Of a DNA stretch of 64,000 nucleotides, positions 45,176-61,849 are shown piece after piece (within the stretch, counting starts at the first letter, position 1; every line of letters begins with the position of its first letter). A model generated the notes under the pieces. That model was given only the letters and a program-made list of their open reading frames with translations, made no database searches and had not been told where the DNA came from. The position numbers and the translations under genes are program-made. Source of the DNA: a virus (taxonomy: Duplodnaviria; Caudoviricetes); IMG/VR virus record IMGVR_UViG_3300044712_000786, positions 32,001 to 96,000 of that record, one strand, 5' to 3'.

Positions 45176-46021
45176 TTATGCTGCCATCGCTTCTTCTGTT
45201 ACTGCCTGCTCTGCTTTGTTCTCACCTAGCAACCAGTCAACGCGCTTTTGTGCCTGCCCTGCTGCTGCTATAACTAGCTTAGTATCACTACCTAACCTGC
45301 TCGCCCATCCCCTAATGTATGCAACAGAGTTATTATAGACATTGCTTGCATCTATGCCTAGGCGAGCTAAGAGCATATTAGCTCCAATCTCAGCAACTAG
45401 CTCTTCTTTGCTATACTCTTCTCCCACTCCTACAGTATCCTTGCCATCGACAAGCTTGCCAGTCCAGTGAATCAATTCATGCGCGAGCGTAGTCCAGTAA
45501 CCCTCATTAGTAGCAAACTGTTCTTTATTAGGCATTTGCACGTAATGCTCGCTAGGCATATAATACGCACGATTGCCACCATGCCGCAAGTCAACATTAT
45601 GCTTGCTAATAACGTCCATTAGGTTAGTGTCAACCACTACGTTCTTAACCTCAGGCAGCTTAAAGCCATGATTCTCAACATCATCAAGAGAGAATACGTT
45701 GTAGTAACGTAGCATAGCCCAACTTCTCTCTAGCGTGCTGCCATCACTACCCTTAACAGCGTCAAATTTCTTCCAAAAGCAGATAGGATAAGCCTTGCTT
45801 CCCTTCTTAATGTAGCCACCACGTTCTTTGATTTGATTGAACGTAGCAAACCACTGGCCTTTACCTACTAAGGACAACAGAAGGAGGTTAATGCCACGAT
45901 ACTGCTTTTGGGTTAGTGCGTTCTTAGGCCATACCATAGTCCAATCACGTTGCCAAGGCAAGGTCGAACTATCAGTAATGTCTTGTACGATTTTCGAAGT
46001 AATAATGTCGTAAACGTTCAT
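45176..46021 (-). CDS. ardC: ArdC-family antirestriction protein (ssDNA-binding domain plus zincin domain)
   Basis: LPWQRDW...NALTQKQYRGINLLLL...ATFNQIKERGGYIKKGSK...RYYNVF; AYYMPSEHYVQMP...LAHELIHWTG...YSKEELVAEIGA. Confidence 0.9.
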   Translation of the reverse strand: MNVYDIITSKIVQDITDSSTLPWQRDWTMVWPKNALTQKQYRGINLLLLSLVGKGQWFATFNQIKERGGYIKKGSKAYPICFWKKFDAVKGSDGSTLERSWAMLRYYNVFSLDDVENHGFKLPEVKNVVVDTNLMDVISKHNVDLRHGGNRAYYMPSEHYVQMPNKEQFATNEGYWTTLAHELIHWTGKLVDGKDTVGVGEEYSKEELVAEIGANMLLARLGIDASNVYNNSVAYIRGWASRLGSDTKLVIAAAGQAQKRVDWLLGENKAEQAVTEEAMAA

Positions 46022-46235
46022 AAGCTTATAATAGGCGTTCTTTTTGAGAAGTCAACATCTATCTTTGAGTTAGTAAGTGTTGACTAACTAAAAATAGCTG
46101 TTAGTATGTGGTTAGTCAAAGACGACCACCGCTAGGGGGAATGGTAATAGGGGCGGAGCCTGCTCTGATTTTAATTAATAAAATTAGGGGTAGGTGAGTG
46201 GCTTTGTCACGCTAAAAAAGGGGAAAGCCCCCGTG

Positions 46236-46373
46236 CTAAGGTCCAATGTCACGTAATACTTCTGACATGAATATGTCAAGCCACTCGTTATACTCGGCTT
46301 GCTCTTCTGGCGTCATTTGAGCAAAGCGCGAAGTTTCGTCCTGTGCGTCGATTGTTGCGAAGTCGTTTTCCAT
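46236..46373 (-). CDS. 45-aa acidic peptide (not in ORF track)
   Basis: Own promoter with ATG at +1; 12 D/E versus 2 R. Confidence 0.65.
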   Translation of the reverse strand: MENDFATIDAQDETSRFAQMTPEEQAEYNEWLDIFMSEVLRDIGP

Positions 46374-46403
46374 AATCAGAGAATATAGAATCTTTTTAGG
46401 AAG

Positions 46404-46568
46404 TCAAGCTCTTTCAAGCTCGCCGCTCCAAAACTCAATTACCTTGTCGCCCACTCGAACAAAGTAAACAAAGTAATGATACCATTCTTCTACCCTTTCA
46501 ACTACACCATAAGACTCTAAAGAAGGGATTACTACTTCCTGCCCGACTTTGAATTTTGGCTCATTCAT
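46404..46568 (-). CDS. 54-aa SH3/KOW-like small protein (not in ORF track)
   Basis: MNEPKFKVGQEVV...YGVVERV; own promoter. Confidence 0.65.
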   Translation of the reverse strand: MNEPKFKVGQEVVIPSLESYGVVERVEEWYHYFVYFVRVGDKVIEFWSGELERA

Positions 46569-46598
46569 AAGCTAAGAATAGCAAATCTTTTTAAATTG

Positions 46599-46802
46599 TC
46601 AAGCCCCCTCTTTTTTGACTTGTACTTTCCATCCGTGAATATGGGCTAACTCATACAGTAGTTCGCGGAATCCCCAATGGCACGCGCCCGATGGAAACAG
46701 ATGATAAAACGCATACTCTTGAGTCAGGTCTATTCCCCCAAGATGAGACGCATTATCAGAAACTAAGTAGTCTCCCTTCTCTTTAACCTTGAGTATAAAC
46801 AT
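46599..46802 (-). CDS. Hypothetical early protein
   Basis: Coupled to the upstream ORF. Confidence 0.5.
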   Translation of the reverse strand: MFILKVKEKGDYLVSDNASHLGGIDLTQEYAFYHLFPSGACHWGFRELLYELAHIHGWKVQVKKEGA

Positions 46803-46988
46803 TTATTCCCCGCAATCTTGTTTGAATTGTTCTACTCCTTCCGCGTATCCCGCCCAATAATCATCTTGGGGAGTATCAGAATCTTGCATGTTCTGTTTAG
46901 CTACGCAATATTCCCCCGCCCATGTATACCCTTTTTGCTCCGCTGTTTTGTAGCCGCTATTAAAACCGCTTTTGTAATCGCTTTTCAT
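46803..46988 (-). CDS. Hypothetical early protein
   Basis: Own leaderless promoter. Confidence 0.65.
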   Translation of the reverse strand: MKSDYKSGFNSGYKTAEQKGYTWAGEYCVAKQNMQDSDTPQDDYWAGYAEGVEQFKQDCGE

Positions 46989-47029
46989 AGTTGAATAATA
47001 GACGGTCTTTTTAAGAAGTCAAGCTTTAG

Positions 47030-47295
47030 AAAAGCGGGAGACTTTGGCAGCGTATCCAAAGTCCCCCGTAAACCCCTAATAGTCATGCATTTATCCCTTT
47101 TCATGCACCGCCGCGTCTTTTGTAGGTAGCACCCATTAATTCATTCCCTGCTACTTTCGGGTATATCCCCCAATATACATTGTGAGTCACGCGGTCTTTG
47201 TGCTCACACCCCGCTTTCTAGTTCCTACTGGGCCTCTTTTCGAGCGAGGAAACGCGCCAGTCACGGGAACTTACTTTTGGTGGGTCTTTGTTCAT
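47030..47295 (-). ncRNA. Candidate structured RNA A (5' part could encode a 25-aa peptide)
   Basis: Promoter (-35 47324-47329, -10 47302-47307), several hairpins, strong terminator 47030-47068. Confidence 0.4.
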
Positions 47296-47334
47296 ATTCA
47301 AATATTATCAGTCTTTTTTGAATTGTCAATACTT

Positions 47335-47580
47335 TCAACCGATAATCAAAAACTTTTTCTTGGCAATGTGCGCAATGTTATCTAACTCATTCATATCCCA
47401 GCCATCACCGAAAATGTATTGGCATTGCCAGCGAATTAACTTAGCTACTACTTCCAAAGTCACATAAACAGGCTTAAAGTCAGGCAAGCCGCAACCATAG
47501 ACAGTGGAATCATCCACATTAGTAAGGTCTTTGTTGCTCTTGGCGATTTCGAACGCTTGCTTGAATTCGGCTTTTGTCAT
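47335..47580 (-). CDS. Hypothetical early protein
   Basis: Own leaderless promoter. Confidence 0.7.
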   Translation of the reverse strand: MTKAEFKQAFEIAKSNKDLTNVDDSTVYGCGLPDFKPVYVTLEVVAKLIRWQCQYIFGDGWDMNELDNIAHIAKKKFLIIG

Positions 47581-47634
47581 AATCAGATAATACGCAATCT
47601 TTTTAAAACGTCAAGCCCTTTGTTTACGCAAAAC

Positions 47635-47799
47635 TTAGTACCTATAATTAAAACAATAACGGCCTTGTCTTTTTTTGCGGATTGCGTTTTGCTTTTTAGT
47701 AAATCTTCCTTTCCATGGATAGCATTTTAAGCAAACCCAAGAGCCATGCAAACAATAGTTAGCTAGACAATTACAGTTTGTGCAGTGGGGCTTATTCAT
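47635..47799 (-). CDS. 54-aa basic Cys-rich peptide
   Basis: MNKPHCTNC...WVCLKC...K/R-rich tail; ATG overlaps the upstream stop. Confidence 0.55.
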   Translation of the reverse strand: MNKPHCTNCNCLANYCLHGSWVCLKCYPWKGRFTKKQNAIRKKRQGRYCFNYRY

Positions 47800-47932
47800 C
47801 GCATAAGTTATGCTCATAGTCTTCATCAGTTCCCATTCCCGCACTGGCCATGGCAGAATCAAAGTCGCCGTCCATATCATCAGGCAACTCGGTTTGAGAC
47901 TCGTAATAACTATCGATATATTCGTCTTCCAT
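47792..47932 (-). CDS. 46-aa highly acidic peptide (not in ORF track)
   Basis: Own promoter; 17 D/E and no K/R; DGDFDSAMASAGMGTDEDY. Confidence 0.75.
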   Translation of the reverse strand: MEDEYIDSYYESQTELPDDMDGDFDSAMASAGMGTDEDYEHNLCDE

Positions 47933-48008
47933 AACCAAATAATAGCGAATCTTTTTAAAATGTCAAGCCAATCCAAACAAAAAAAGAGAGGGGCTTTCGC
48001 CCCCCGTG

Positions 48009-48545
48009 CTACTCGATTACCATTGTATCCCCATCCATTCGAACACTTTGCAGAGTCTCACCGCTCAAAACAAACTCGCGCACACGATTAATGGGCAACT
48101 TATCCCGCAAGTTATTCTTTTCTACAGTCAACGGGCGACTTTTGACTTCCTTGTATTCGCCCTTTTCGATTACAACTTTAGTATGGGCCAAACCCATCAC
48201 GTTAATGCAACCCGTTGAAATGCAATACTTTAGTCCATTTGCAATCTGAATGTATGCATCCGCTTTGGTGTAAGCGGGATTATAAGTCCCGTTCTTGATT
48301 GCTTCTCTGCTGTTCAAGAGCGAATCATAGACTTCCTGCCAAGCTTGCAACTGTAAAGCACCAACCATAGCAGGCTTAAGCAATTCCATTTCAGTGATGC
48401 TAGCCTCTATCTGTTTTGCATAGCTTGCGCCCAAAATCAGAGTATGACGGGCGACTTCTCCCGTTCCCTTAGCTTTGTAGGTAAAGGACACAAACTGAGC
48501 TTTACCCGCGTTCTGTCGAATAGACTCGATGATGTCGTGTAGCAT
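48009..48545 (-). CDS. Hypothetical early protein
   Basis: Own promoter and downstream terminator (47985-48008). Confidence 0.75.
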   Translation of the reverse strand: MLHDIIESIRQNAGKAQFVSFTYKAKGTGEVARHTLILGASYAKQIEASITEMELLKPAMVGALQLQAWQEVYDSLLNSREAIKNGTYNPAYTKADAYIQIANGLKYCISTGCINVMGLAHTKVVIEKGEYKEVKSRPLTVEKNNLRDKLPINRVREFVLSGETLQSVRMDGDTMVIE

Positions 48546-48597
48546 ACCTAAATAATACAGAGTCTTTTTAAAATGTCAACTGTTTTGAACAAGTTCG

Positions 48598-48777
48598 TCA
48601 ACACTCAACTTGAACTATTGTTTTAATAACTAAACGACAATTACGATTAGGAAAACACTTAGCCCATACGCGAAACTGTTCTTTAGCTTCTTTTTCGCCT
48701 GTATGGACGGGTAACCCGATAGAATCGTAATAACCGCCATTTGGAGCTTGTTCCTGAATCCAATATTGATGTTCCAT
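48598..48777 (-). CDS. 59-aa hypothetical protein (not in ORF track)
   Basis: MEHQYWIQEQAPNGG...; coupled to the upstream ORF. Confidence 0.5.
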   Translation of the reverse strand: MEHQYWIQEQAPNGGYYDSIGLPVHTGEKEAKEQFRVWAKCFPNRNCRLVIKTIVQVEC

Positions 48778-48947
48778 TATATTGCCTCCGAAGCGTGAAG
48801 AGATTCAATCATGTTCTCTTTATTCCAGCCGCAATTGTCGCAGCCCATCACCCAAGCACAAGCGTCAATCTGTTCTTGCGTCATGGTTGAAATTGCTTGG
48901 CGCATATTAGCGAAAAATTGTTCCCTTGTTAGCAGCTTTTTGTTCAT
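48777..48947 (-). CDS. 56-aa hypothetical protein (not in ORF track)
   Basis: Own leaderless promoter. Confidence 0.6.
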   Translation of the reverse strand: MNKKLLTREQFFANMRQAISTMTQEQIDACAWVMGCDNCGWNKENMIESLHASEAI

Positions 48948-48977
48948 GTCCTAATACTAAAGGATTTTTTTAAATTG

Positions 48978-49178
48978 TCAACATTCCCTTGCATCAACGT
49001 ATAGAATCAAGTCAAGGACAATTTGAGTGATTCTCTGGGGATACCGGATTTTGCGCCACAATAATTGATAACGCGGCTTGCGAGTTTTGATGTATTTTTC
49101 CCCCGCCCATTTGTTAATGTAATTTATTAATCTGTAACCACATGGATACAGATAGAGGAACCGAATGAGTTTTATCAT
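48978..49178 (-). CDS. Hypothetical basic protein
   Basis: Start re-assigned from TTGCCC-16-TATAAT-7-ATG. Confidence 0.5.
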   Translation of the reverse strand: MIKLIRFLYLYPCGYRLINYINKWAGEKYIKTRKPRYQLLWRKIRYPQRITQIVLDLILYVDAREC

Positions 49179-49219
49179 CGCCCTTATTATACAATAAATT
49201 GTCAAAAGGGCAAGCTAAT

Positions 49220-49366
49220 TCAGATAGTATCAGTCTTTTTTGAATTGTCAATATCTGCTTTAGCCGCTCGCCTTTCGGCTTTAGCCACCTTGCGCTTATT
49301 GTAAGGCCGAAGATGTTTCCACCACTCGGGAGATTTTGTCAGGGTGTCTTTTCTTTTGTGCGCCAT
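49220..49366 (-). CDS. 48-aa basic peptide (not in ORF track)
   Basis: MAHKRKD...EWWKHLRPYNKRKVAKAERR; own promoter. Confidence 0.65.
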   Translation of the reverse strand: MAHKRKDTLTKSPEWWKHLRPYNKRKVAKAERRAAKADIDNSKKTDTI

Positions 49367-49388
49367 ATTTGAATAATATGAAATCTTT

Positions 49389-49619
49389 TTAAGATGTCAA
49401 TTCTTTTGCGCGTTGGATAATCTTTTCCCTTATCTCTAAACCATTCTCCTTATATTGTCTGGGCGACTCATCCACAGCTTGTAATACTGCTCTATAGCAA
49501 CATTCCCCGAATAGTCCTAAGCTTTCGCCCCGCCTATCATTGACGGGCATAATCCCGCCCCATCCCTTTTTGTTCGTCCTATCTACTCCACATAAAGAAC
49601 AAATTCTTTTGATGTCCAT
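49389..49619 (-). CDS. Small Cys-containing protein
   Basis: CSLCG...ECC; coupled ORF. Confidence 0.55.
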   Translation of the reverse strand: MDIKRICSLCGVDRTNKKGWGGIMPVNDRRGESLGLFGECCYRAVLQAVDESPRQYKENGLEIREKIIQRAKELTS

Positions 49620-49624
49620 AACGA

Positions 49625-49945: not shown

Positions 49946-49990
49946 AATCAAATACTAGCAAGTCTTTTCTAATTGTCAACACCTAACATC

Positions 49991-50505: not shown

Positions 50506-50527
50506 ATCTCTATAATAGAGAATCTTT

Positions 50528-50961: not shown

Positions 50962-51130
50962 TTAATATCTTTCTTAGGGTCATTTCTCGCCTATAGGCCC
51001 AATCCGCATTCTTAGCAAAAGGGTTAGGGTGTTTTAACGTCCAAAGTGATTTTAGACGGTCAATTTCTTCCTGAATAGCTTCCTTAGTCTCACCTTTAGC
51101 CCAATCTTCGGCGTGATATTCTGCTGACAT
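50942..51130 (-). CDS. Hypothetical early protein
   Basis: Own leaderless promoter. Confidence 0.65.
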   Translation of the reverse strand: MSAEYHAEDWAKGETKEAIQEEIDRLKSLWTLKHPNPFAKNADWAYRREMTLRKILNERLFF

Positions 51131-51153
51131 AATCAGAGAATACAGGGTTTTTT

Positions 51154-51336
51154 CTAATTGTCAACCTTTTTAGTCGGAAGCTCGCTCGGATTGCTATCCC
51201 CACAATAATTACAGCAATATCCGCTAATAACAGGATGACCGCATTTCTTACAAGCGTAGATTGTGGGGACAAAGCTGCGAGCAAGCTGATTAGCCAGAGC
51301 TTGCCAGTGCGGAGTATACGGTTCGATGGTTTTCAT
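51154..51336 (-). CDS. Small zinc-ribbon protein
   Basis: CKKCG...CCNYCG; own promoter. Confidence 0.65.
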   Translation of the reverse strand: MKTIEPYTPHWQALANQLARSFVPTIYACKKCGHPVISGYCCNYCGDSNPSELPTKKVDN

Positions 51337-51581
51337 ATAGTCAACAATATAGAGTTTTTTCTAATTGTCAACCCATTCATAGAGTAGGGCTAACAACAGA
51401 GCTAATATGAGAATTTCCACGATGTTTGGGGCATTTAGCATAAGGTGCGGAATCTGCCCCGCACGTTTGGCATTTACCTTGCGCCTTTTTACGCAACTGA
51501 TACTTGCGTTGACGGGAGATTTTCAAAAATCTTATTTGGTCTCTTATCATGTGTAAATTCTATTGGTTTTTTACTAACTTG

Positions 51582-52033: not shown

Positions 52034-52055
52034 AGTGTAAATCTATATGAGTTTT

Positions 52056-52478
52056 TTAAGATTTCAAGCCGTTACGCGCTCTGACTAACTTATCGATAAC
52101 ATCGATGGGAAACTCCTGACAGCCGACTATAACTTTATCTTTATAAACAAGGGCAGTATGATTGTTGTTTAGTTTGACTTTTGCTCCCCTACTGAGAGAC
52201 CAATCTATAGAGATAAACTCTTCAAAAGAAAGGTCTTTACACATAGTATCGCCGCATTTAGAGCCCGAAACTTCGCGCAAGTTTCCTTCTATTCTAATCA
52301 TAGAGTAAGGCCAAGTCTCAAAGTCCTGCTCAAAAGAGCCCCTTTCAAGATAGCTTTTCAGGAAAACATTAGGATTCTCATCAGAGTTAATGGACACGTT
52401 CCTATAGCCAGCAATAGCTAGAATAGAAAGAATTGCAACGTGCTCGCTAACGTTTTTTGATTTAATTTGGTATCTCAT
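52056..52478 (-). CDS. Hypothetical early protein
   Basis: Own leaderless promoter. Confidence 0.7.
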   Translation of the reverse strand: MRYQIKSKNVSEHVAILSILAIAGYRNVSINSDENPNVFLKSYLERGSFEQDFETWPYSMIRIEGNLREVSGSKCGDTMCKDLSFEEFISIDWSLSRGAKVKLNNNHTALVYKDKVIVGCQEFPIDVIDKLVRARNGLKS

Positions 52479-52491
52479 GTTCTAAGTCTAT

Positions 52492-52884
52492 TCAGTTTTT
52501 TTGTTTTGTCAAGTTCGACTTTACTTTGCGCCAGTAAGCATCTGTCAAATGTTTTTTACTTTTCCAATCGGGACCCGAGTTATGAACCCGCGCCATAGTC
52601 TCGAAGTCGTTACTAGCCAACGCTTTAGGACAATAGCGCGACATGTAAGCCTCCATTACTTTAACGCTATAGTCAAGGTTAGTAACCATGCTATAACTAC
52701 CTTTAACTCGGGAGTCAAGCCAATAAGATTTGGAGATTTGCAGGGGACCTAGCGATTTGCCAGCATCCCCCACAATCCGCCCGTGCCTCCCACTAGTCTC
52801 AGTCAGGTGAATAGCACGGACGAAATTGGTATTGATTGCGCCCTGCAAACTAAAGGCGAGAAATAGAATAGGCAGAAATTTCAT
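52492..52884 (-). CDS. Signal-peptide-bearing lysozyme-like protein (i-type/destabilase-like)
   Basis: MKFLPILFLAFSLQGA signal; AIHLTETSG catalytic Glu helix; GPLQISKSYWLD; MARVHNSGP. Confidence 0.75.
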   Translation of the reverse strand: MKFLPILFLAFSLQGAINTNFVRAIHLTETSGRHGRIVGDAGKSLGPLQISKSYWLDSRVKGSYSMVTNLDYSVKVMEAYMSRYCPKALASNDFETMARVHNSGPDWKSKKHLTDAYWRKVKSNLTKQKN

Positions 52885-53126: not shown

Positions 53127-53215
53127 TGGTACCAACGACTGGATTCGAACCAGCAAGGCTTTTAATGGCCGAGGGATTTTAAGTCCCTTGTGTAAACCAA
53201 TTCCACCACGTTGGC
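53127..53215 (-). tRNA. trnL: tRNA-Leu (anticodon UAA), CCA encoded
   Basis: GCCAACG/CGTTGGT acceptor, AGGGA-CTTAAAA-TCCCT anticodon arm, long variable arm, GTTCGAATC T-loop, ACCA end. Confidence 0.93.
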
Positions 53216-53221
53216 AAAGAC

Positions 53222-53409
53222 AGCGCGATGGCGGATTCGAACCACCGACCTATGAAGCTTCTGGCCTCATTGCTCTGGGATTTAGGCAAGTTGTTAACGA
53301 CCCACCATTTACCCCATCCCCACTAGTATACAGCGCACGCAAGCCTTATTCTAGAATTATCTCTATTGCACGCCTTAAACCGTCGAATGAACCGCTGAGC
53401 TAATCGCGC
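53222..53409 (-). ncRNA. tRNA-shaped gene with 114-nt D-loop insertion and enlarged anticodon loop
   Basis: GCGCGAT/ATCGCGC acceptor; GCTCAGCGGT[53390..53277]AGAGC D-arm; ATGAG-GCCAGAAGC-TTCAT arm; AGGTC variable region; GGTGG-TTCGAAT-CCGCC T-arm. Confidence 0.75.
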
Positions 53410-53410
53410 A

Positions 53411-53678
53411 TAAATTCTAGGCTATTAGACTTGCTCCGCTTAGTTATGTATTCCTAAGCATTCTAGCTTCGGGAATTACCCGTCATTATCTAATTCTTTC
53501 CCGCCGAAGGAACAGACAGCATTAACGTAGCTGCCTACACGTTCGAAATTCTGATTGACTTGCGGGGGGTTAAACATAAGCAAGGTAGCTACTCCTCACT
53601 CATGCCGCTTATAGTCGGGATTCCTCCCAATGGGTCTACCCGATTCGCCAGCCGCCAATCAAAGCTGACTTGCTAGCT
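53411..53678 (-). ncRNA. Candidate structured RNA B, 5' of the tRNA cluster
   Basis: Promoter (-35 53707-53712, -10 53685-53690) with no ATG at +1; multiple hairpins with GNRA/UUCG loops. Confidence 0.5.
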
Positions 53679-53715
53679 AAATTGAATCTACCAAACTTTT
53701 TTCAGAAGTCAAGCT

Positions 53716-53856: not shown

Positions 53857-54014
53857 TAATTTCCTCTCACGTAAGCTTTTTCTTCTGTCTTGCACTTAGG
53901 GCATTCAAAAGTCATAACGTCATAGCCCTGAAAATCTTCCTCTATGTTGAGGAACTTAACCTTAGCGGCATCGAACCGCTCTTTACATTTGGGACAGGTA
54001 ACGAAGTGTCTCAT
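53856..54014 (-). CDS. 52-aa zinc-ribbon protein (not in ORF track)
   Basis: CPKC...CPKC; own promoter. Confidence 0.7.
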   Translation of the reverse strand: MRHFVTCPKCKERFDAAKVKFLNIEEDFQGYDVMTFECPKCKTEEKAYVRGN

Positions 54015-54044
54015 ATCTAAAGAATACAAAACCTTTTTAAATTG

Positions 54045-54236
54045 TCAAGGTCTGTATTTAGTTTCGATGTCCTTTAATTCCTTTTCCTTTTCCGCCTTTC
54101 GCACTAAATACGTTCGCAATATAGTACCGTGATAATCGATTGTCTTATCCAATTCTATAATGTCCCTCTTAAGTTGAGCCCTCTTTTGCTCTATAGAAGT
54201 CCTTACGGCTTTAGGCAGCTTCCAGATTTCAGTCAT
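54045..54236 (-). CDS. Small coiled-coil protein
   Basis: Coupled ORF. Confidence 0.55.
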   Translation of the reverse strand: MTEIWKLPKAVRTSIEQKRAQLKRDIIELDKTIDYHGTILRTYLVRKAEKEKELKDIETKYRP

Positions 54237-54448: not shown

Positions 54449-54660
54449 TAGTCTGCCCAAATTGCGGGAATTGAATGTATGTCTAAATCGCTCGCAAGGA
54501 TAAATCCTTCTATACCCTTAATCTGGATTAATCCCATATAAGGGTCAAGAAAAAGTCCATTGCGAGGACCACTAGGAAAGAAAGCTAAGAACGTCCTAGG
54601 ATTAGTCATCGCATCTGACTGCCTTTCGGCTTCTGCCATTAACTTAGCGAGCGTTTCCAT
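54448..54660 (-). CDS. Hypothetical early protein
   Basis: Own leaderless promoter. Confidence 0.65.
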   Translation of the reverse strand: METLAKLMAEAERQSDAMTNPRTFLAFFPSGPRNGLFLDPYMGLIQIKGIEGFILASDLDIHSIPAIWAD

Positions 54661-54734
54661 AACCGAAGTATAGAGGGACTTTTTAGAAAGTCAAGCTGGT
54701 TCAAAAAGAGGGGAGTTTTACCTCCCGTTGTCAC

Positions 54735-55709
54735 TTACGCCACAAGCAAGTCAATCGCTTGCTGTTTGAGCCTTGCCCCACTCCCCAAGAGGATAGAATC
54801 AAAGCGGCTTTCGCCCTTTTCCTTATCGCCCGTCACGCGAATCGAACGGGAGAAATCGGTGAATTCAGTAATCGCGTTCAAGTAATCATAGCGGCTCTCG
54901 CCTACGTTACCCGTTCCCCGCTGAAACAGAGAGATAACTTCCTCCCGCACGTTTTCAGTTCGAGTAGAAACTTCCACTTCCCCAGTTTCCTCGTTAACAG
55001 AAGCGGGAAACAGGACTTCGTTGAACTTGACCGCGTCATCCACGGTCATTTTCTTGGTTTTAAGCATGTTCATCACTTCACCGAGCTTAGTGAAGTAAGC
55101 TTCAGCAATACCAAGCACGCGCTGAGCCTCTTCTTTCTTGCTCTTGTAGTTCTTGGTATGGCGAATCTTAATCTGATTAGTTGCCCCGTCAAGAGCAGCA
55201 GTCAGAGTATTCTGACAAACTACGCGCACCGCAACATGTTGCATCCAAACACCATGGGAACCATCATGGGCGGTGACCAAAAGCACCCACTGTTCATGCT
55301 TGTCAGTCGAGTCAACATAGACCGTATTAGGCAGCTTTGCCATAATCCAAATCTTGCGCCCGTCATGCAAGGCACCCGCAGTCTCATAGATTGCCTGCCC
55401 CGCACCAACAACTTCGTCAAAGAACCCGAAGGCATCCGCGTTCTGAATGACAGTGTAGCGATTCTTCACCACACCAAGGGGGAAATTGTTGTCGCAACGA
55501 ACGACAGCTTTATAATCCCTCAACTCGATGTCCTGCCCCTTGACAGTGAGGGGACGCTTCTCAACTTGCCAATCCAAATGTGCATGTTGAATTGCTTCGG
55601 CAGCAGTGGCAAGCCCTTCGATGACTTGTCCCTGCCCGTGCCAAGGCACTTGGCGATTACCACTGAACATTTCCGTTACTCCGTTTACGACTGATAGATT
55701 TGCGCTCAT
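54735..55709 (-). CDS. DUF932-family phage/plasmid protein
   Basis: PWHGQG...AIQHAHLDWQVEKRP...VVRCDNNFPLGVV...YTVIQNADAF...ETAGALHDGRKIW...AHDGS...VRVVCQNTL...RHT; terminator at 54705-54728. Confidence 0.85.
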   Translation of the reverse strand: MSANLSVVNGVTEMFSGNRQVPWHGQGQVIEGLATAAEAIQHAHLDWQVEKRPLTVKGQDIELRDYKAVVRCDNNFPLGVVKNRYTVIQNADAFGFFDEVVGAGQAIYETAGALHDGRKIWIMAKLPNTVYVDSTDKHEQWVLLVTAHDGSHGVWMQHVAVRVVCQNTLTAALDGATNQIKIRHTKNYKSKKEEAQRVLGIAEAYFTKLGEVMNMLKTKKMTVDDAVKFNEVLFPASVNEETGEVEVSTRTENVREEVISLFQRGTGNVGESRYDYLNAITEFTDFSRSIRVTGDKEKGESRFDSILLGSGARLKQQAIDLLVA

Positions 55710-55778
55710 ATTGTTTTTTGTTTAATTGTTTACTACTCTCTAATCTTAAACAATCTTTTTGAAATTGCAAGAGGTTTT

Positions 55779-56012
55779 TTACTTAAATCCAATTCGATTT
55801 GACTTCGGGGGTTCGTCCCGCACTTCCATCACAACATTAGGACTGAAATCCCAGATAAAGCCTTGATGCCCATAGGTTTTCACAAACTCGCGCATTTTAG
55901 TGTGACACAATGCTGCCAACTCCAATATCTCAAAGCCTAGCTTAATTTGCTTTTCACTAGTCTCGTGAGGCGAAACTAAACGGTATTTGTTATCTTTTTC
56001 GGCGATATACAT
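55779..56012 (-). CDS. Hypothetical early protein
   Basis: Promoter overlapped by a 20-bp palindrome. Confidence 0.6.
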   Translation of the reverse strand: MYIAEKDNKYRLVSPHETSEKQIKLGFEILELAALCHTKMREFVKTYGHQGFIWDFSPNVVMEVRDEPPKSNRIGFK

Positions 56013-56054
56013 ATGTTTTGAACAAGTTCAAAACTAATCAGTCTTTTTAAGAAG

Positions 56055-56435
56055 TCAAGCCTTCTCGAAGACAAAGCTTCTATTTCCTTTATCGTTAATG
56101 AAAGCAAGTGCTTTATCAGCATCATCAAAGATAGGGAACCAGTCAGGGTCATTGTCATCGCAGTAGAAACTCTTTTGCACCCTGAACTTATATTTCTTAG
56201 CTTCTAATTCAGCTAAAGATAAGCTCTTATATATTTGCTGAGTAACCCAGTATTCCACAATGGGTTCAGGACCGAATACAACATGAGCTAATTCGGCCAT
56301 GGTCTTATGTCTGGAGTTACCGAAGCGCCTCCAATAAGTTCTCTCATGCAAGATAGGCTCCCCCTCAGGGGTGACATAGTTTGCTGCTTCCCAACCCCGA
56401 CCAGCAAATACAGGTTCGCTATGTAATTCTATCAT
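56055..56435 (-). CDS. Hypothetical early protein
   Basis: Own leaderless promoter. Confidence 0.7.
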   Translation of the reverse strand: MIELHSEPVFAGRGWEAANYVTPEGEPILHERTYWRRFGNSRHKTMAELAHVVFGPEPIVEYWVTQQIYKSLSLAELEAKKYKFRVQKSFYCDDNDPDWFPIFDDADKALAFINDKGNRSFVFEKA

Positions 56436-56484: not shown

Positions 56485-56739
56485 AAAAAACCCCGCCAGT
56501 TTCCCAGCGGGGTAAATACCCTTGGTTCAGGTCATGACTCCCGAAGCAAGGTTATCTCAGGCAGCATCCAAGGCGAGATATCCAACATCGCCTTCATGGG
56601 TTAGCCGTTGGCGGCTGGGTCTGCCATATTGAAAATGATGGGTGGTTCAGCCCGAGTCTCTACAACCTAGGTCAATGGCCACTTCCCTAGAATTGCTGCA
56701 TGGTTTCAACAGCCGATTTATGCTATCTTTGCGCCACCC
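56485..56739 (-). ncRNA. Candidate structured RNA C
   Basis: Promoter (-35 56768-56773, -10 56746-56751), +1 GGGTGG pairing with CCACCC, nested hairpins, terminator 56485-56513, no ORF over 21 aa found. Confidence 0.55.
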
Positions 56740-56769
56740 AAAGACAGTCTAGCAAGTATTTTTCCGTTG

Positions 56770-57006
56770 TCAACCTCGAAACAATCCGAAAAGAATAAGC
56801 AGTCCTATTATAATCCAGCCTATGATATTTAGGCCAGCACCTAAACCCTTGGCTTGATTCAGAAAATCTTTAGCGTTATCGGACATCCGAGGATTATCCG
56901 TTACCGTTATACGCCATTTCTCCTTGTCAGATAAAGGTCTAGGCGTAACAGATTTCTTATATTTCTCTGCCATTTCCCTAGCGAATTGTCGTTCGCCTTC
57001 TGTCAT
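56770..57006 (-). CDS. Small protein with C-terminal transmembrane helix
   Basis: NIIGWIIIGLLILFGLF; start set by promoter geometry. Confidence 0.6.
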   Translation of the reverse strand: MTEGERQFAREMAEKYKKSVTPRPLSDKEKWRITVTDNPRMSDNAKDFLNQAKGLGAGLNIIGWIIIGLLILFGLFRG

Positions 57007-57062
57007 ACCCACCATGCTACATTAAATTTTAAAATTGTCAACTCGTTTGAACTAGTTCAAAC

Positions 57063-57353: not shown

Positions 57354-57369
57354 ATCCTAAATCTATCAG

Positions 57370-57657
57370 TTATTTTCCAACAGTCAAGCCCCACTTCAGC
57401 AATTCTTGCCACGAATCAAACTCAAAAATCTTAAATGCACCATTTTCGAGGAGCATTGTCGCAAGGCCCTGAATAGACGGCGAGGTAAATGCAGACCAAC
57501 TATTACCCGTGGTTAAATAATAAAAGCAGAAGGCTTTGTATTCTGTCCCGTTGTGGGTAATAAAACCCGCACGAGAATCCGTAGTAACCCCGTAATATTT
57601 GTCAGTGGAGACTTTATCGGGGGTGATTTCGACACATGCTTTAACAACTTGTTTCAT
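57370..57657 (-). CDS. Hypothetical early protein
   Basis: Own leaderless promoter. Confidence 0.7.
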   Translation of the reverse strand: MKQVVKACVEITPDKVSTDKYYGVTTDSRAGFITHNGTEYKAFCFYYLTTGNSWSAFTSPSIQGLATMLLENGAFKIFEFDSWQELLKWGLTVGK

Positions 57658-57673
57658 ATTTGAATAGTATCTA

Positions 57674-57844
57674 TTATTTTCCTTCAGTCAACTCTTTAAT
57701 GCAGAAAGGGCAACCCCCTTCGCGCCGTTCTCGCTTGCTGCGAGGCACACCGACAACAACATGTCGAATGCGCAAATTTTCATCTGATTTGGTTAGATAG
57801 CGCCCGTGTTTCAGGCAGCTTACTTCGTAGAATTTAGGACTCAT
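57674..57844 (-). CDS. 56-aa Zn-binding peptide (not in ORF track)
   Basis: CLKH...CPFC; ATGA coupling. Confidence 0.55.
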   Translation of the reverse strand: MSPKFYEVSCLKHGRYLTKSDENLRIRHVVVGVPRSKRERREGGCPFCIKELTEGK

Positions 57845-58155
57845 AAATGTTTTCCTTTATAAACAGCTTTATATTTTTCAAGATACGCTATAGCTTTTTC
57901 GGGGGTTGTTACGTATCTATTTTCCTCGCAACACCATGCGCTGAAGGAGTCTCCAAACAATCCCAACAGAGCACATTCAGGACCGAGGATAGCAACCACA
58001 AATCTGGTTAACGTATTTCCAAAATAAGCTTCGAATATCGCCCCCGATTGGAAATTTGTCCGAATATCCTTTTTCCTTTCAGCAAGTATATTTGATATCT
58101 CGTCAAATTCAACGGGATGTCCCGCAGCCCAATCTAGGATTGTCTCTTTAGTCAT
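57841..58155 (-). CDS. Hypothetical early protein
   Basis: Coupled ORF. Confidence 0.55.
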   Translation of the reverse strand: MTKETILDWAAGHPVEFDEISNILAERKKDIRTNFQSGAIFEAYFGNTLTRFVVAILGPECALLGLFGDSFSAWCCEENRYVTTPEKAIAYLEKYKAVYKGKHL

Positions 58156-58390
58156 ATCTCGATTCTATATTACTTTTTGAATGTGTCAATACCCATTTCT
58201 TAGCTCGCTTTAGATAACTATCAAAGTATCCCTTATCTTCGTTATCTACTCTCTGACCACAGTTGGGGCAAATACCGAAGTTCTTATAACCAAACAAGGC
58301 CGCTTGTATTTCCCCCTCAGTGTCACTACCCCAATACTGTTTACATACGGGACACTCTAATGCTAGCTTTAACGATAAAGAAAGGCTCAT
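58148..58390 (-). CDS. Zinc-ribbon protein
   Basis: CPVC...CPNCG. Confidence 0.6.
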   Translation of the reverse strand: MSLSLSLKLALECPVCKQYWGSDTEGEIQAALFGYKNFGICPNCGQRVDNEDKGYFDSYLKRAKKWVLTHSKSNIESRYD

Positions 58391-58510
58391 TTGCTTCTCA
58401 CTACATAACTTCCATCTGATTTCTTAAAGATATAGCCAATCACCTTCCTATTAGACCAGATAAAGATGAAATGACTATAACCGAGAAAGCCAGCGTAATT
58501 ATGTTCGAAT

Positions 58511-58735
58511 TCAATCATTCAGCCGAGAGATATTAGCCCTTGCCAGCCCATCGATGGCACCGTTTTTCAGGCCCCGTTTGATAGCACCCGCTAAGATAGC
58601 TGCAATCTTATGAGCCGTCTCCGCGCCACCTTTAGCTTCCGAGATAAGTGAGAAGCCATCTTTCTTGAAGTGCCATTTCCGAAAAGTAGGACTGAATTGA
58701 AATTCGATATCTTTGATTTTGTAAGTTTTAGCCAT
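58511..58735 (-). CDS. Hypothetical early protein
   Basis: Own leaderless promoter. Confidence 0.65.
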   Translation of the reverse strand: MAKTYKIKDIEFQFSPTFRKWHFKKDGFSLISEAKGGAETAHKIAAILAGAIKRGLKNGAIDGLARANISRLND

Positions 58736-58758
58736 AGCTCAAGGATAGATAGCTTTTT

Positions 58759-58998
58759 TCAGATGTCAACACTATTACCATCCTTGTCTAACCTAAAGAA
58801 CTCGGGTTGACTTCCCGCGTCGATTAGATTATCAGCAGCCTCTTTAGGGGTAAGCTCTTGAACACTAGAAACGTCAAATGTATGCAAGACAGATGTTTCA
58901 TTTACTTCCCTAGCAATATCTTCTAGGTCTATATTAGAGATATCTTCCTCGCTTAAAATGATAAGCTTGAATTCGGTTTTGTAGTATTTTTTAGCCAT
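58759..58998 (-). CDS. Acidic hypothetical early protein
   Basis: Own leaderless promoter. Confidence 0.7.
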   Translation of the reverse strand: MAKKYYKTEFKLIILSEEDISNIDLEDIAREVNETSVLHTFDVSSVQELTPKEAADNLIDAGSQPEFFRLDKDGNSVDI

Positions 58999-59086
58999 GT
59001 CCTAATACTAGCTGGACTTTTTAGGAAGTCAAGCCCAACGCCGCTTTTGAATTTCCCTTTTCTAAAAGTCACATGTAATACTTTAT

Positions 59087-59770
59087 GTGATATCTCTTTA
59101 TACTGAAGAAGAACTTCTAAATTCTAAACGAGGAACTAAACTAAAGCTTAGATGCGAGCACTGCCTTAAGGAGTTTTATGTAATGGCGTCTGTAGTAAAA
59201 CAGAAATTAATGGGAAAAAAAAGATGGGAAAAGAAACTCCGTTTTTGTTCTCAAGATTGTTCCTATTTAGGCCAAAGAAAAAGAATAAAGACTAATTGCA
59301 AACAGTGTGGAAAAGATATGGATATATGGCCATGCGACCTAAAGACACATATTAATCAATTTTGCTCTCAAAGTTGCTCTGCCAAACACCGAAATGCTCA
59401 TAAAACTTGGGGCTCAACCCGTTCTAAATTAGAGATTTATATTGAAAAATGCCTCACCGAAATTTATCCCAAGTTAGAAATACATTATAACAAGACTTCT
59501 GCAATTGGCTCAGAGCTAGATATTTATATTCCGTCTTTGCGGCTAGCTTTCGAACTAAACGGGATATTTCATTACGAACCAATTCACGGAGACAAAACCC
59601 TTCAAAGAATGCAAAATAACGACCAAAGGAAGTATCATGCTTGCATTGAAAATAGTATAAGTCTCTGTATTATCGATTCGTCTTCTCTGAAATATTTCAA
59701 GGAAGAGCGTGCAAAGCCCTTCCTTAAAATCATTACTGATTTGATAAATGGGAAACTGGGGTCAGGGTGA
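59087..59770 (+). mobile_element. Free-standing PD-(D/E)xK (Vsr/DUF559-like) endonuclease with CxxC fingers, likely homing-type
   Basis: Repeated CxxC...FCSxxC fingers; SKLE, ELDIYIP, AFELNGIFHY; opposite orientation to neighbours; late motif ATGTAAT 7 nt upstream. Confidence 0.65.
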
Positions 59771-59787
59771 CTGAACCCCAGCTTTGA

Positions 59788-60039
59788 TTATGCCGCTACA
59801 GCGGTAGGCGCAACGGGCGCGGACGTAGCTGCGGCAGCAGCAGCCTTCGCTTCGTGATACTTGCGCCAGCGACGTTTCTGGGCTTGCCCAATCTTCGCTT
59901 TCGCCGCATCGCTCATACCGCTCTTCGTGACTTCAACCGTTCCGCCGAGGATACCCTGAAGGCGAACCTTAAGAGTCTCGATTTGCTTGGCGAGTTCCGC
60001 CGCTTCCGTAAGTTGCTGACTTGTCAATACTGTTTCCAT
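59788..60039 (-). CDS. Small putative DNA-binding protein (coiled coil plus basic helix)
   Basis: LTSQQLTEAAELAKQIETLKVRLQGILGG; MSDAAKAKIGQAQKRRWRK; Ala-rich tail. Confidence 0.65.
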   Translation of the reverse strand: METVLTSQQLTEAAELAKQIETLKVRLQGILGGTVEVTKSGMSDAAKAKIGQAQKRRWRKYHEAKAAAAAATSAPVAPTAVAA

Positions 60040-60123
60040 ATTACCTTTCGTTTTGTTTATTGTTTAACTACATCCCCAATCTACTACCTTTTTTTAATAA
60101 GTCAACAAACTCTTTTTTACTAG

Positions 60124-60390
60124 CTAACTCGTTGTTACTGACTTCTTTGTAGCCTTTCCTATTAGATGACCAAGAGGAATTTGTTCCCCGATTAGGTGAT
60201 TTTCAGAACCAGCATCCCTAAGAACATAGCCATAGTTATTGACTTCAGCCGTGTCATCCCCTTGGATAAGAAGGACATTTGCCTTGTCAGTGCGCTTAGC
60301 TCCTTTGTTCTTACAGTTTTGGGCAGCTTCATGCAGTGTTTTGCCCCTTCCCCAGTAACCCATTACTATCACGATAATTGTATATTTCAT
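60124..60390 (-). CDS. Hypothetical early protein
   Basis: ATGA coupling. Confidence 0.55.
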   Translation of the reverse strand: MKYTIIVIVMGYWGRGKTLHEAAQNCKNKGAKRTDKANVLLIQGDDTAEVNNYGYVLRDAGSENHLIGEQIPLGHLIGKATKKSVTTS

Positions 60391-61070
60391 TTTCTTGAAT
60401 ATCCGTTTTTCCTGATTGATTTGGCTTGAATACTACCTTTTTTACCCTGCCCGTGGATGAGTAGAGCAAAAGACTTTTCTGCTTTCATGGCTAGAGAATC
60501 ATCATGGTCTATTTCTAACCCCAATTCTTTAGCTTCCTCTTCACTATAAACAACTTGCGCGAATACAAGATTGTATTTAGCTATTAAGTCATCACACTTT
60601 CCACCCTTCGAAGCTGTCAACTTAAAATTAGAAGGAATCTCATTAATCCTTGCTATCCAATAGGGTAGAGATTTGGTATAAGTATAAAACAGCTTATTAG
60701 GAAACCGCCGCGCTACTTCCATCCATGCATCGAAATAGGTCTGATTAAAGAAGTCCCCGCTACCACCAGTCCTAACATAACCCATGTCGTCCTGCTTAAC
60801 CCCCTCCTCTAATAGGGATACCATTTCTTCAAAGGATTTCCCTTTTAGTTGGTCAAAGTTTTTCCATCTGGATTTACGCACAGAGGGAAAGCCACACTCC
60901 ATACTAGCAGCATAGCACCTAAACCCTTCCCCGTCCTCCACCATCTTACCCGTCGCCCTATCAGCGCAAGTTAGACAATCCTTAGCAAAAGGACAGCTAT
61001 ACCCCGCAGGTAGCGAGAATATAGCTATCTTTTTTGAAAGTTTGGCGTTGCCAGTTGTGAACTTAAGCAT
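60387..61070 (-). CDS. GP88-like phage protein
   Basis: GNAKL...FSLPAGYSCP...C...CYA...SGDFF...FYTYTKS...NFKLTAS; own promoter. Confidence 0.7.
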   Translation of the reverse strand: MLKFTTGNAKLSKKIAIFSLPAGYSCPFAKDCLTCADRATGKMVEDGEGFRCYAASMECGFPSVRKSRWKNFDQLKGKSFEEMVSLLEEGVKQDDMGYVRTGGSGDFFNQTYFDAWMEVARRFPNKLFYTYTKSLPYWIARINEIPSNFKLTASKGGKCDDLIAKYNLVFAQVVYSEEEAKELGLEIDHDDSLAMKAEKSFALLIHGQGKKGSIQAKSIRKNGYSRK

Positions 61071-61167
61071 ACGCCAATCTTAAATATTCTTTTTAAAATG
61101 TCAACTCTTAATAAACCTCCCGTCGATTAGAATTAATAAAGCAATGCATAATAACAGTATGTCCATA

Positions 61168-61422
61168 TCAACGATACAACCCTTCCTTGATGGAAGCAAT
61201 GCTCCCCTTGCCCAGTAGTATTAATACAGAACCTTCTTTATGCACAAGCTCTTCTTTATCGTTAAAGTGCGCGTTTTCATCATCTATTTCGTAAGCGTAT
61301 GCTTCTGCCCCATAGAATGTATGACCGTTCTTTTTGATGTCATTGACTGCCTCGTGCCAAGTCTTGCCGAAGCCCCAAACAGTCTTTTTATTAATTGGGT
61401 GTAGCTGACTGACCACTTTCAT
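61168..61422 (-). CDS. Hypothetical early protein
   Basis: TTGCCA-16-TAGACT-6-ATG. Confidence 0.65.
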   Translation of the reverse strand: MKVVSQLHPINKKTVWGFGKTWHEAVNDIKKNGHTFYGAEAYAYEIDDENAHFNDKEELVHKEGSVLILLGKGSIASIKEGLYR

Positions 61423-61444
61423 CGCACTAGTCTAGCGGATTTTT

Positions 61445-61849
61445 TCACGCTGGCAAGGATGAAAGGTCAGGCGTCTCAAATTCAATATAGCCAAACTTAT
61501 AAGGATACAAATCCATTTCTGCATCTTTAACGATAAAGTTTGTTATTTGAATGCTTTGTAATATTTGTTCCGCTCTTATTTGTGCCTCCGGTAGTAGCCC
61601 ACGCTTTTTCCCTTTGGATTTTCCATAGTCGATATTTAGCAGTTCAAAAAGAGCTATATTTAATAGGGCTTTATTTAAGTCCTCGTTATTTGTCCAGAAG
61701 TAAGCAAAGTTTGAAGTAAGCCAGTGAAGCTCACCCGAAGTTGCCTGATGGTTATAGAATGAGTAATATTTTCGTTCTATTTCGATGGGGTCATCGTTTT
61801 CGATTCCAATTGCTGTAACGGAACCAAAGTCATGGCGATGCAGAAGCAT
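61445..61849 (-). CDS. Hypothetical protein
   Basis: ORF; start uncertain. Confidence 0.5.
   Translation of the reverse strand: MLLHRHDFGSVTAIGIENDDPIEIERKYYSFYNHQATSGELHWLTSNFAYFWTNNEDLNKALLNIALFELLNIDYGKSKGKKRGLLPEAQIRAEQILQSIQITNFIVKDAEMDLYPYKFGYIEFETPDLSSLPA

Follow-up and report, generated by a model that had tools for sequence, protein, structure and literature searches.

Sigma70-type promoters abutting start codons, and predicted leaderless mRNAs, in an uncultured soil phage of about 203 kb

Along the minus strand of an uncultured soil phage genome (~203 kb), promoter-like elements end six nucleotides before one start codon after another, which raises the question of what mRNAs they make, what reads them, and how the genes behind them are translated. 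Here, we report a computational analysis of a 64,000-nt stretch (the window), bases 32,001 to 96,000 of a 202,704-bp IMG/VR phage genome (IMGVR_UViG_3300044712_000786) with direct terminal repeats, whose DNA was found in rhizosphere metagenome DNA runs. We consider it probable that these promoters are read by the host and give leaderless mRNAs with coupled cistrons behind them, in a lineage adapted to a matching host. Coordinates are those of the window unless stated otherwise, and the start coordinates listed for the promoters give the A of each minus-strand ATG.

Promoter array

The motif TTGM-N18-TANNNT-N6-ATG matched the window 25 times (0.46 expected; 100 shuffles, maximum 3), and all 25 matches were on the minus strand, confined to 46,019 to 61,456. 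A 28-nt weight matrix, built from TTGAC-16-TAnnnT sites and applied at a threshold of 10 bits or more, found 76 minus-strand and 6 plus-strand sites in the whole genome, where Markov-shuffled versions gave about 2.8 on each strand. It recovered all 26 starts listed in an earlier note on this DNA, 24 with N6 and two with N7 (51336 and 57006). That note had placed the array at 46 to 61.5 kb; the promoters are there, but the array does not end at 61.5 kb and reaches genome position ~160.9 kb, the 76 sites spanning ~83 kb of genome. At 46 to 62.7 kb of the window, 37 weight-matrix promoters were found (25 with N6, four with N7, and eight without an abutting start; Table 1), and predicted leaderless units beyond the 26 listed begin at 58155, 49178 (N7, no A-tract), and 61935 (N7).

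The consensus was c-TTGACA-(a/t)tTt-AAAAA-(g/a)a(t/c)(t/c)...-TA(t/g)(t/a)(a/c)T-tnGnnT-ATG-(A-rich). Its spacer is rich in T at positions 1 to 4, with AAAAA(G) at positions 5 to 10. In the -35 element of the window sites, TTG was invariant and A, C, and A/T followed at 70 to 100%; in the -10 element, TA...T was invariant by selection of the sites, with preferences for T/G, T/A, and A/C between. The sites thus show what is expected of sigma70/sigmaA promoters, namely, a near-TTGACA -35 element, TAnnnT at 16 bp, and a position upstream of, and orientation toward, genes or RNAs. A Bacteroidota-type reading (TTTG ... TAnnTTTG) was rejected on comparison of the module consensus with that motif. 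The 16-bp spacer emerged from a count that required neither A-tract nor ATG: TTGAC-16-TAnnnT occurred 58 times on the minus strand of the whole genome, versus 2 to 11 times for each other spacer of 13 to 21 bp, and on the plus strand TTGAC-spacer-TAnnnT was at background level only. The A-tract proved equally regular, with AAAA within the spacer at 53 of the 58 sites and A at 80% or more at spacer positions 5 to 9, a preference kept in a sister phage (see below).

The coding (minus) strand held 76 of the 82 sites, and those that abut no start preceded leadered genes, a tRNA, or structured RNA candidates. Because eight window promoters have no abutting ATG, the ATG does not belong to the promoter proper. 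Behind four of them (55770, 56058, 60105, and 62651) are genes with 12- to 32-nt leaders, and 49251 stands in tandem just upstream of promoter 49213 (ATG 49178). The other three (53712, 56773, and 57387) head stretches of 250 to 460 nt that are free of open reading frames (ORFs) and are more stably folded than shuffled sequence (z of -2.3, -3.1, and -2.4, respectively); the units from 56773 and 57387 end in terminator-like hairpins, and that from 53712 enters a tRNA-Leu. We regard these three as candidate structured non-coding RNAs; an Rfam search of 45 to 64 kb returned tRNA as the sole match. On the plus strand, the genome has only one strong copy (46080-46107; 24.7 bits), which is divergent from the last early promoter and has no ORF behind it. 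The 68 nt downstream of this copy folded no better than shuffled sequence (z, 0.49), and it was set aside.

In the earlier note, the A-tract was taken as a possible bend or activator site. Natural spacers have been divided into four parts (a T-rich tract beside the -35 element, a stretch of low signal, another AT tract, and a G-rich section containing TG), and saturation mutagenesis found that spacer composition shifts strength >600-fold in a 16-bp-spacer promoter library (PMC12641261). The order in the phage (T-rich, A-tract, partial TGn) agrees with this four-part scheme. The tract itself is real; since spacer composition alone can alter 16-bp-spacer promoters to that extent, the case for an element of intrinsic strength is at least as good as that for an activator site. 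Most likely, we infer, the A-tract is such an intrinsic element, compensating for sub-optimal 16-bp spacing; possibly, it is instead a common operator to which a factor of the phage or the host would bind.

Predicted transcription starts

At the 42 N6 sites, the A of the ATG is the seventh base past the -10 element, and in 34 of them a Y-R-Y triplet (TAT or CAT) is centred on that A. In a study of 49 species that included saturation mutagenesis, a Y-R-Y element centred 7 bp past the -10 element and the start site coincided 93% of the time for E. coli RNA polymerase (PMC12641261). Over the whole genome, a start codon 5 to 9 nt past the -10 element opened an ORF of at least 25 codons at 56 of the 76 sites; the distance was 6 nt in 42, 5 nt in 5, 7 nt in 7, 8 nt in 1, and 9 nt in 1. 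These 56 abutting starts were 52 ATG and 4 GTG. The ORFs opened by abutting ATGs had a median length of 84 codons, versus 17 for random ATGs of the region, and the first 36 nt of the predicted mRNAs were 43% A and folded at an average of -2.7 kcal/mol; windows taken from within these genes folded at -5.0 kcal/mol (p=1.7e-8).

Reporter work in Caulobacter found leaderless translation to be set by an AUG start, zero extra 5' nucleotides, and an accessible 5' end, each added 5' A cutting leaderless output about 2-fold (PMC8459731). All three determinants are predicted for the phage units, among which N6 dominates. The proposal in the earlier note that sigma70 geometry puts +1 on the A of the ATG is therefore supported by the Y-R-Y triplets, the preference for AUG, the predicted unstructured 5' ends, and conservation in the sister phage, and the prediction of leaderless mRNAs is well supported by the statistics of the sequence, by conservation, and by published rules. 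By this prediction, leaderless units are the majority (56 of the 76 sigmaA-type sites, plus 14 to 15 GTGTAAW sites described below). The observation that these starts have no Shine-Dalgarno (SD) sequence holds by construction. The expectation that the rule would reveal real ORFs found partial support: at 47932, a 46-aa acidic protein has a homologue in another viral contig and a coupled ORF behind it, but the 25-aa ORF at 47295 is unsupported.

Coupled cistrons and terminators

Promoterless genes in the cluster nearly always touch or overlap the upstream stop (gaps of -20 to +6 nt, typically ATGA or TAATG), and convincing SD sites are few (e.g., GGAGG 8 nt before 48777). In a crude genome-wide classification of start contexts (365 ORFs, some spurious), 164 ORFs were coupled to the ORF before them (an SD-like motif in 30 of these, at a background rate of 7%), 59 were leaderless behind sigmaA promoters, 14 fell in the GTGTAA class, ~14 followed directly after CCA, 26 had a free-standing SD-like motif, and 88 were unclassified. 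Promoters often overlap the genes before them: at 46 to 59 kb, the upstream stop is on the TGA within TTGACA at gaps of 30 nt and on TAA/TAG at spacer positions 3 to 6 at gaps of 22 to 23 nt, and at 46988 and 58155 the entire promoter is within the upstream ORF. Good minus-strand intrinsic terminators were found at 45172, 46232, 47068, 48005, 54726, and 56513, i.e., about 6 versus 37 promoters at 45 to 64 kb; with terminators so few, most promoters would lie within transcripts that read through from upstream. As a working rule, and the simplest one to fit, each cistron is either coupled to the preceding ORF or given its own leaderless-making promoter.

Second promoter class and tRNA junctions

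The plus-strand structural genes were without SD sites. GTGTAAW-N7/8-ATG occurred 14 times in the genome (1.6 expected), and GTGTAAW alone was not over-represented. Beside the four GTGTAA(T/A) sites of Table 1, 11 others were noted in the genome. GTGTAAT-N7/8-ATG was found on both strands, ahead of structural, packaging, and other genes, including the portal (33840) and tail genes (5132 and 8571); it is probably a -10-only (late) promoter class, leaderless or nearly so. The phage also encodes a sigma-like protein with region 2 only (Table 1), for which no match was found among cultured phages. A sigma protein of this kind is the factor expected for a -10-only element, and this one probably reads the GTGTAAT class. 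Its operon is seemingly headed by GTGTAA elements. A third recurrent upstream motif, GATTTTTGAAAAAT(T/A)A(C/T)T, stands immediately 5' of the ATG of several plus-strand ORFs of ~55 to 190 aa (starts 40511, 41726, 43094, and 43541) in a region at ~40490-43560 with 34.5% GC.

At 6 of 17 tRNAs called by ARAGORN, an encoded CCA is followed 3 to 4 nt on by an ATG that opens an ORF. Such tRNA-CCA junctions at genome positions 132.8 to 149.6 kb (L006:16837-16913 and L007:4638-4713, 5438-5513, 8761-8836, and 13508-13583) have the linkers TCT, ATTT, TTTT, and TTT and ORFs of 58 to 105 aa; tRNA 3' processing would free mRNAs with almost no leader. An AUG at or near the predicted 5' end thus recurs with three ways of making that end, namely, sigmaA promoters, the GTGTAAT class, and tRNA 3' ends.

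Conservation in relatives

An IMG/VR scan for the exact module returned singletons, except for six matches in one 208,933-bp contig (G001). This contig is a sister phage (37% GC; best-conserved genes, 67 to 70% DNA identity) with 34 minus-strand TTGAC-16-TAnnnT sites, 27 of which carry a TTTTAAAAAGAT-like spacer block, mostly 6 to 9 nt from an ATG. Orthologues of 12 of 55 promoter-proximal ORFs were found in it (37 to 56% amino acid identity); eight of the 12 keep promoter-N6-8-ATG, even where the -35 element has drifted, and the DUF932 gene has a 25- to 30-nt leader in both phages. Around GP88-like homologues, four more distant IMG/VR contigs (L016 to L019; 43 to 44% GC) contain arrays of TTGACA-16 or 17-TAnnnT-N6-ATG, and in one 215-kb contig, 47 sites with 16-bp spacers fall within a single 20.7-kb stretch. 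Since geometry and spacer block are kept in relatives, both appear to be under selection. The architecture was absent from Synechococcus phage S-EIV1, the best cultured match of the GP88-like protein (43% identity), which has a different upstream motif and long leaders. In Streptomyces BK-cluster phage MulchMansion, with TAGACT -10 elements and mostly SD-containing leaders, it was present at only 2 of the 24 upstream regions examined.

Host signals

A nucleotide search against cultured phages gave no match, nor did the portal, and TerL shared just ~25% identity with terminases from Bacillus, Clostridioides, and cyanophage sources. No WhiB was found in the phage, and PhoH and GMP reductase were uninformative as host indicators. 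Bacterial genomes were calibrated by counting TTGAC-N17/18-TANNNT-N6-ATG matches against a reversed-pattern control. Actinomycetota, which are rich in leaderless mRNAs, gave 44 versus 8 (5.5x); ten ~2-Mb Cyanobacteriota genomes (GTDB; G049, G052, G055, G058, G061, G064, G067, G070, G073, and G076), 128 versus 23 (5.6x); Bacillota, 115 versus 53 (2.2x); Leptospirales, 338 versus 162 (2.1x); and large photosynthetic cyanobacteria, about 1x (not summed). Leptospirales (27 versus 10 in one genome) were dropped as a host lead because Bacillota show the same ~2.2-fold ratio. In five ~2-Mb Cyanobacteriota genomes, the signal was N6-specific (71 versus 23 for an N10-shifted pattern). Photosystem II reaction-centre genes were absent from all ten, which therefore belong to the non-photosynthetic branch of Cyanobacteriota, and this branch is predicted to be rich in leaderless mRNAs. 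It was rejected as the host, the A-tract/16-bp version of the phage having 0 matches in 121 genomes of the class. Judged by these counts, there are low-GC lineages in which ATGs natively abut promoters, which does not by itself name the host.

Interpretation

From the geometry, statistics, and conservation established above, we infer start positions, a promoter reader, a mode of translation, and host properties as follows. An ~83-kb early/middle transcription domain would occupy the minus strand and be densest at 46 to 62.7 kb of the window, and its sigma70/sigmaA-type promoters would be read by the host RNA polymerase holoenzyme; the latter is the presumptive reader because neither a single-subunit nor a multisubunit RNA polymerase gene was recognisable in the phage. 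The A of the start codon would be the first base transcribed, and the resulting leaderless mRNAs would be translated by 5'-end-dependent initiation, which elsewhere uses 70S ribosomes and is favoured by IF2. Downstream cistrons, with their ATGA and TAATG overlaps, would be translated by termination-reinitiation, and the units would be nested 5' ends inside longer read-through transcripts. The -10-only class, with its region-2-only sigma, and the tRNA 3' ends would also set 5' ends on or within 4 nt of an AUG. The most economical reading would be an adaptation of the entire lineage to a host with ribosomes that cope well with 5'-terminal AUGs and use SD sequences little.

Several points weigh against this explanation, including its putative "host-matched" part. 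Among GTDB species representatives, the exact module occurred as singletons over many phyla, with no enrichment among the 120 stretches listed. True SD sites, such as GGAGG before 48777, imply that the host presumably has a working anti-SD. The looser spacing in G001 (6 to 9 nt) means that some transcripts there may carry 1- to 3-nt leaders, lowering leaderless translation. The gene calls, made by a greedy longest-ORF method, are crude, and spurious ORFs are included in the genome-wide class counts.

The same architecture could be a weapon, with the phage, or abortive-infection toxins of the host, blocking SD-dependent translation while phage mRNAs escape, an explanation that we think unlikely. 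It has a precedent in phiYS40, with mostly leaderless transcripts and a shifted host IF2/IF3 balance (PMC3594737); a phage with an AUG at nearly every predicted 5' end might lose little by disabling SD-led initiation, and the few real SD sites suggest that the host uses SD. However, the design extends beyond the early genes, the coupled downstream cistrons would still require ordinary ribosomes, and no IF3_C, PemK/MazF interferase, or S1 domain was found in the phage, which is an absence of support and not proof of absence, most early ORFs being orphans without known family. As worded in the earlier note, in which an early program would resist a shut-off of leadered translation, the idea did not find support: non-SD starts also occur in GTGTAAW late genes, tRNA junctions, and the 164 coupled ORFs, and the strategy is therefore not specific to early genes.

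That the promoters serve chiefly as cassettes through which small early genes are shuffled by recombination, in the manner of the promoter-early stem-loop elements (PeSLs) of T4-type phages, with the abutting ATG a by-product of compaction, seems to us improbable. Copies share long identical stretches (47329 and 49251 are identical in the -35 element and the entire 16-bp spacer), gene turnover is quick (only the 12 of 55 promoter-proximal ORFs have a sister-phage orthologue), and promoter hexamers overlap or supply the upstream stop codon; PeSLs provide a precedent (PMC2839356). But PeSLs include a stem-loop terminator, against only ~6 terminators for 37 promoters here, and exact N6 spacing, Y-R-Y at +1, the AUG preference, and open 5' ends would not be expected from compaction alone. 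Shuffling is compatible with host-read leaderless promoters and is not an alternative to them. We give least credence, close to none, to the elements being inactive as promoters, or to starts elsewhere, with a binding site or an RNA-level signal and another form of non-SD initiation in their place. An A-rich block 18 to 24 nt upstream of the AUG in read-through RNA could conceivably act as a translational enhancer; against this, both hexamers are almost perfect sigma70 consensus at fixed spacing and in strict strand and orientation, the same element heads ORF-free structured RNA units and a tRNA, and no phage RNA polymerase was found.

Host-read promoters that make leaderless mRNAs thus remain our preferred reading. 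A broader claim, made tentatively and with more doubt than belief, is that the lineage has all but given up SD initiation, with three routes to a 5' end 0 to 4 nt from an AUG and the rest coupled, paired either with a 5'-end-dependent host clade or with a phage-imposed SD block; in the former case, the clade could be identified through this signature. If the predicted starts are right, the array would be the most uniform natural leaderless set known to us, with >50 units in one genome. Having the same core promoter and different coding 5' ends, the units would form a natural library for leaderless translatability and a natural test of the 16-bp spacer and A-tract as a promoter element. The "promoter or coupling" rule aids gene callers where tiny ORFs and true starts are otherwise missed, and the signature could help pair phages with hosts.

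Neighbouring genes

Two very acidic early proteins of 46 aa (47792-47932) and 45 aa (46236-46373), both on the minus strand and near the ArdC-like gene, resemble DNA mimics in composition. The 130-aa early ORF at 52492-52884 (minus strand) had a Pfam Destabilase (i-type lysozyme) match (E=1.5e-5), slightly below the curated cut-off. Inside the promoter-driven domain, an adenylosuccinate-synthetase homologue (PurA-like), ThyX, and a GMP-reductase-family gene were found on the minus strand (L008:240-1604, 6593-7504, and 9855-10853, respectively), with a J-domain/kinase-like gene and a vWA gene close by; a PurZ-type role for the PurA-like gene is conceivable. The tail module includes one 4,244-aa ORF (14479-27213, plus strand), presumably the tape measure protein.

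Table 1. Promoters at 46 to 62.7 kb of the window and further features named in the text (start, A of the ATG; distance, -10 element to ATG; "new", outside the earlier list)
Position	Strand	Feature	Distance or leader	Start	Behind the promoter; remarks
45176..46021	-	ArdC-N + zincin metallopeptidase, 281 aa			Anti-restriction-like
46019..46055	-	Promoter (-35 TTGACT, 16-bp spacer, -10 TATTAT)	N6	46021	281-aa ArdC-N/zincin ORF
46371..46407	-	Promoter	N6	46373	45-aa acidic ORF
46566..46602	-	Promoter	N6	46568	54-aa ORF
46986..47022	-	Promoter	N6	46988	61-aa ORF, then coupled 67-aa ORF (46599-46802)
47293..47329	-	Promoter	N6	47295	25-aa ORF only (doubtful); unit ends at terminator 47068-47035
47578..47614	-	Promoter	N6	47580	81-aa ORF
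47930..47966	-	Promoter	N6	47932	Very acidic 46-aa ORF, then coupled Cys-rich ORF ending 47635
48543..48579	-	Promoter	N6	48545	178-aa ORF; arrangement kept by G001 orthologue
48945..48981	-	Promoter	N6	48947	56-aa ORF, then coupled ORF 48598-48777 with true GGAGG SD
49176..49251	-	Tandem pair, promoters 49251 and 49213			49251 with A-tract, no ATG behind
	-	Promoter 49213 (TTGCCC, 16 bp, TATAAT)	N7	49178	66 aa; arrangement kept by G001 orthologue; new
49364..49400	-	Promoter	N6	49366	48 aa
49943..49979	-	Promoter	N6	49945	106 aa
50503..50539	-	Promoter	N6	50505	103 aa, then coupled 68-aa ORF
51128..51164	-	Promoter	N6	51130	62 aa, then two coupled ORFs
51334..51371	-	Promoter	N7	51336	60 aa
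52031..52067	-	Promoter (-35 TTGAAA)	N6	52033	64 aa, then coupled 85-aa ORF
52476..52512	-	Promoter	N6	52478	140 aa
53088..53124	-	Promoter immediately past tRNA-Leu (53127-53215)	N6	53090	69 aa, then coupled 130-aa Destabilase-like ORF
53216..53712	-	Promoter 53712-53685			No ORF; ~460-nt structured stretch running into tRNA-Leu; RNA candidate
54012..54048	-	Promoter	N6	54014	52 aa, then coupled ORF
54658..54694	-	Promoter	N6	54660	70 aa, then two coupled ORFs
55707..55770	-	Promoter (TTGCAA, 16 bp, TAAGAT), exception	~27-nt A-rich leader		DUF932 gene (54735-55709); G001 orthologue leadered too
56010..56058	-	Promoter, exception	~12-nt leader	56012	77 aa
56433..56469	-	Promoter	N6	56435	126 aa; terminator 56513-56490 upstream
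56488..56773	-	Promoter 56773-46			ORF-free ~250-nt structured RNA candidate ending in terminator
57004..57041	-	Promoter	N7	57006	78 aa
57060..57387	-	Promoter 57387-60			ORF-free ~290-nt structured RNA candidate
57655..57691	-	Promoter	N6	57657	95 aa
58153..58189	-	Promoter inside end of upstream ORF	N6	58155	104 aa; new
58733..58769	-	Promoter	N6	58735	74 aa, then coupled ORFs
58996..59032	-	Promoter	N6	58998	79 aa
60037..60105	-	Promoter, exception	~32-nt leader	60039	83 aa
61068..61104	-	Promoter	N6	61070	227-aa GP88-family protein; G001 orthologue keeps promoter, N7
61420..61456	-	Promoter (-35 TTGCCA)	N6	61422	84 aa
61933..61970	-	Promoter	N7	61935	52-aa ORF (uncertain); new
62590..62651	-	Promoter	~28-nt leader		Heads array of coupled ~60-aa ORFs
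37724..38416	-	Sigma-like protein, 230 aa			Sigma70 region 2 (25 bits), no detectable region 4
5118-5134		GTGTAA(T/A) site	N7/8
8556-8573		GTGTAA(T/A) site	N7/8
33840-33861	-	GTGTAA(T/A) site	N7/8
41682-41703	-	GTGTAA(T/A) site	N7/8

Comparison with known systems

The nearest parallel is the Thermus thermophilus phage phiYS40, a large lytic phage likewise without its own RNA polymerase, in which a -10 element stands just upstream of the start codon and whole temporal classes (the middle and late mRNAs) consist mostly of leaderless transcripts; IF2 rises and IF3 falls upon infection, and the leaderless mRNAs were proposed to be linked to translation control (as summarised in PMC3594737). In tblastn searches with TerL, portal, and GP88, no Thermus phage was matched, so that sequence kinship to phiYS40/TMA was not found. 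The leaderless classes of phiYS40 reportedly use a single -10-like element, and its early -35/-10 promoters are not reported as leaderless; in the soil phage, in contrast, it is the -35/-10 class that would be leaderless, and this class has a conserved A-tract in a spacer fixed at 16 bp. In phiKZ, dRNA-seq detected no leaderless transcript (PMC8244752). The classical phage leaderless mRNA, lambda cI from PRM (PMC9031893), is a single regulatory transcript and not a genome-wide design.

A few leaderless SigA promoters have been predicted in the cluster O mycobacteriophages, Corndog and its relatives (PMC4351075). They make up only ~3 of 8 to 9 promoters per genome, versus at least 56 in the soil phage, and show no conserved spacer block; the host phylum of these phages is known as rich in leaderless mRNAs. 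The PeSL regions of T4-type phages share many strong sigma70-like early promoters, each before a small, fast-evolving orphan ORF in a plastic region (PMC2839356, PMC4122927), but their cassettes combine the promoter with a terminator stem-loop and have SD leaders, whereas in the soil phage terminators are rare and the promoter abuts the ATG. Among cellular genes, leaderless ones make up 20 to 25% in mycobacteria and Streptomyces and as much as 60% in D. deserti, and L. interrogans has ~440 of them (PMC9031893, PMC4007540, PMC5243855). As in the phage, TAnnnT stands about 6 to 7 nt before the ATG/GTG that is +1 in Actinomycetota, Deinococcus, and Leptospira; their -35 elements are weak and their spacers variable, in contrast to the near-consensus -35 element, fixed spacer, and viral array seen here.

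A leaderless-dominated phage program therefore has a precedent in phiYS40, and the soil phage is an extension and not a new principle. What is new is the scale and uniformity of the array and a -35/-10 class that is itself predicted to be leaderless, its spacer fixed at 16 bp and bearing a conserved A-tract. Also new are the near-total lack of free-standing SD sites, the inclusion of putative late promoters and tRNA junctions, and the occurrence of all this in a new ~200-kb phage lineage.

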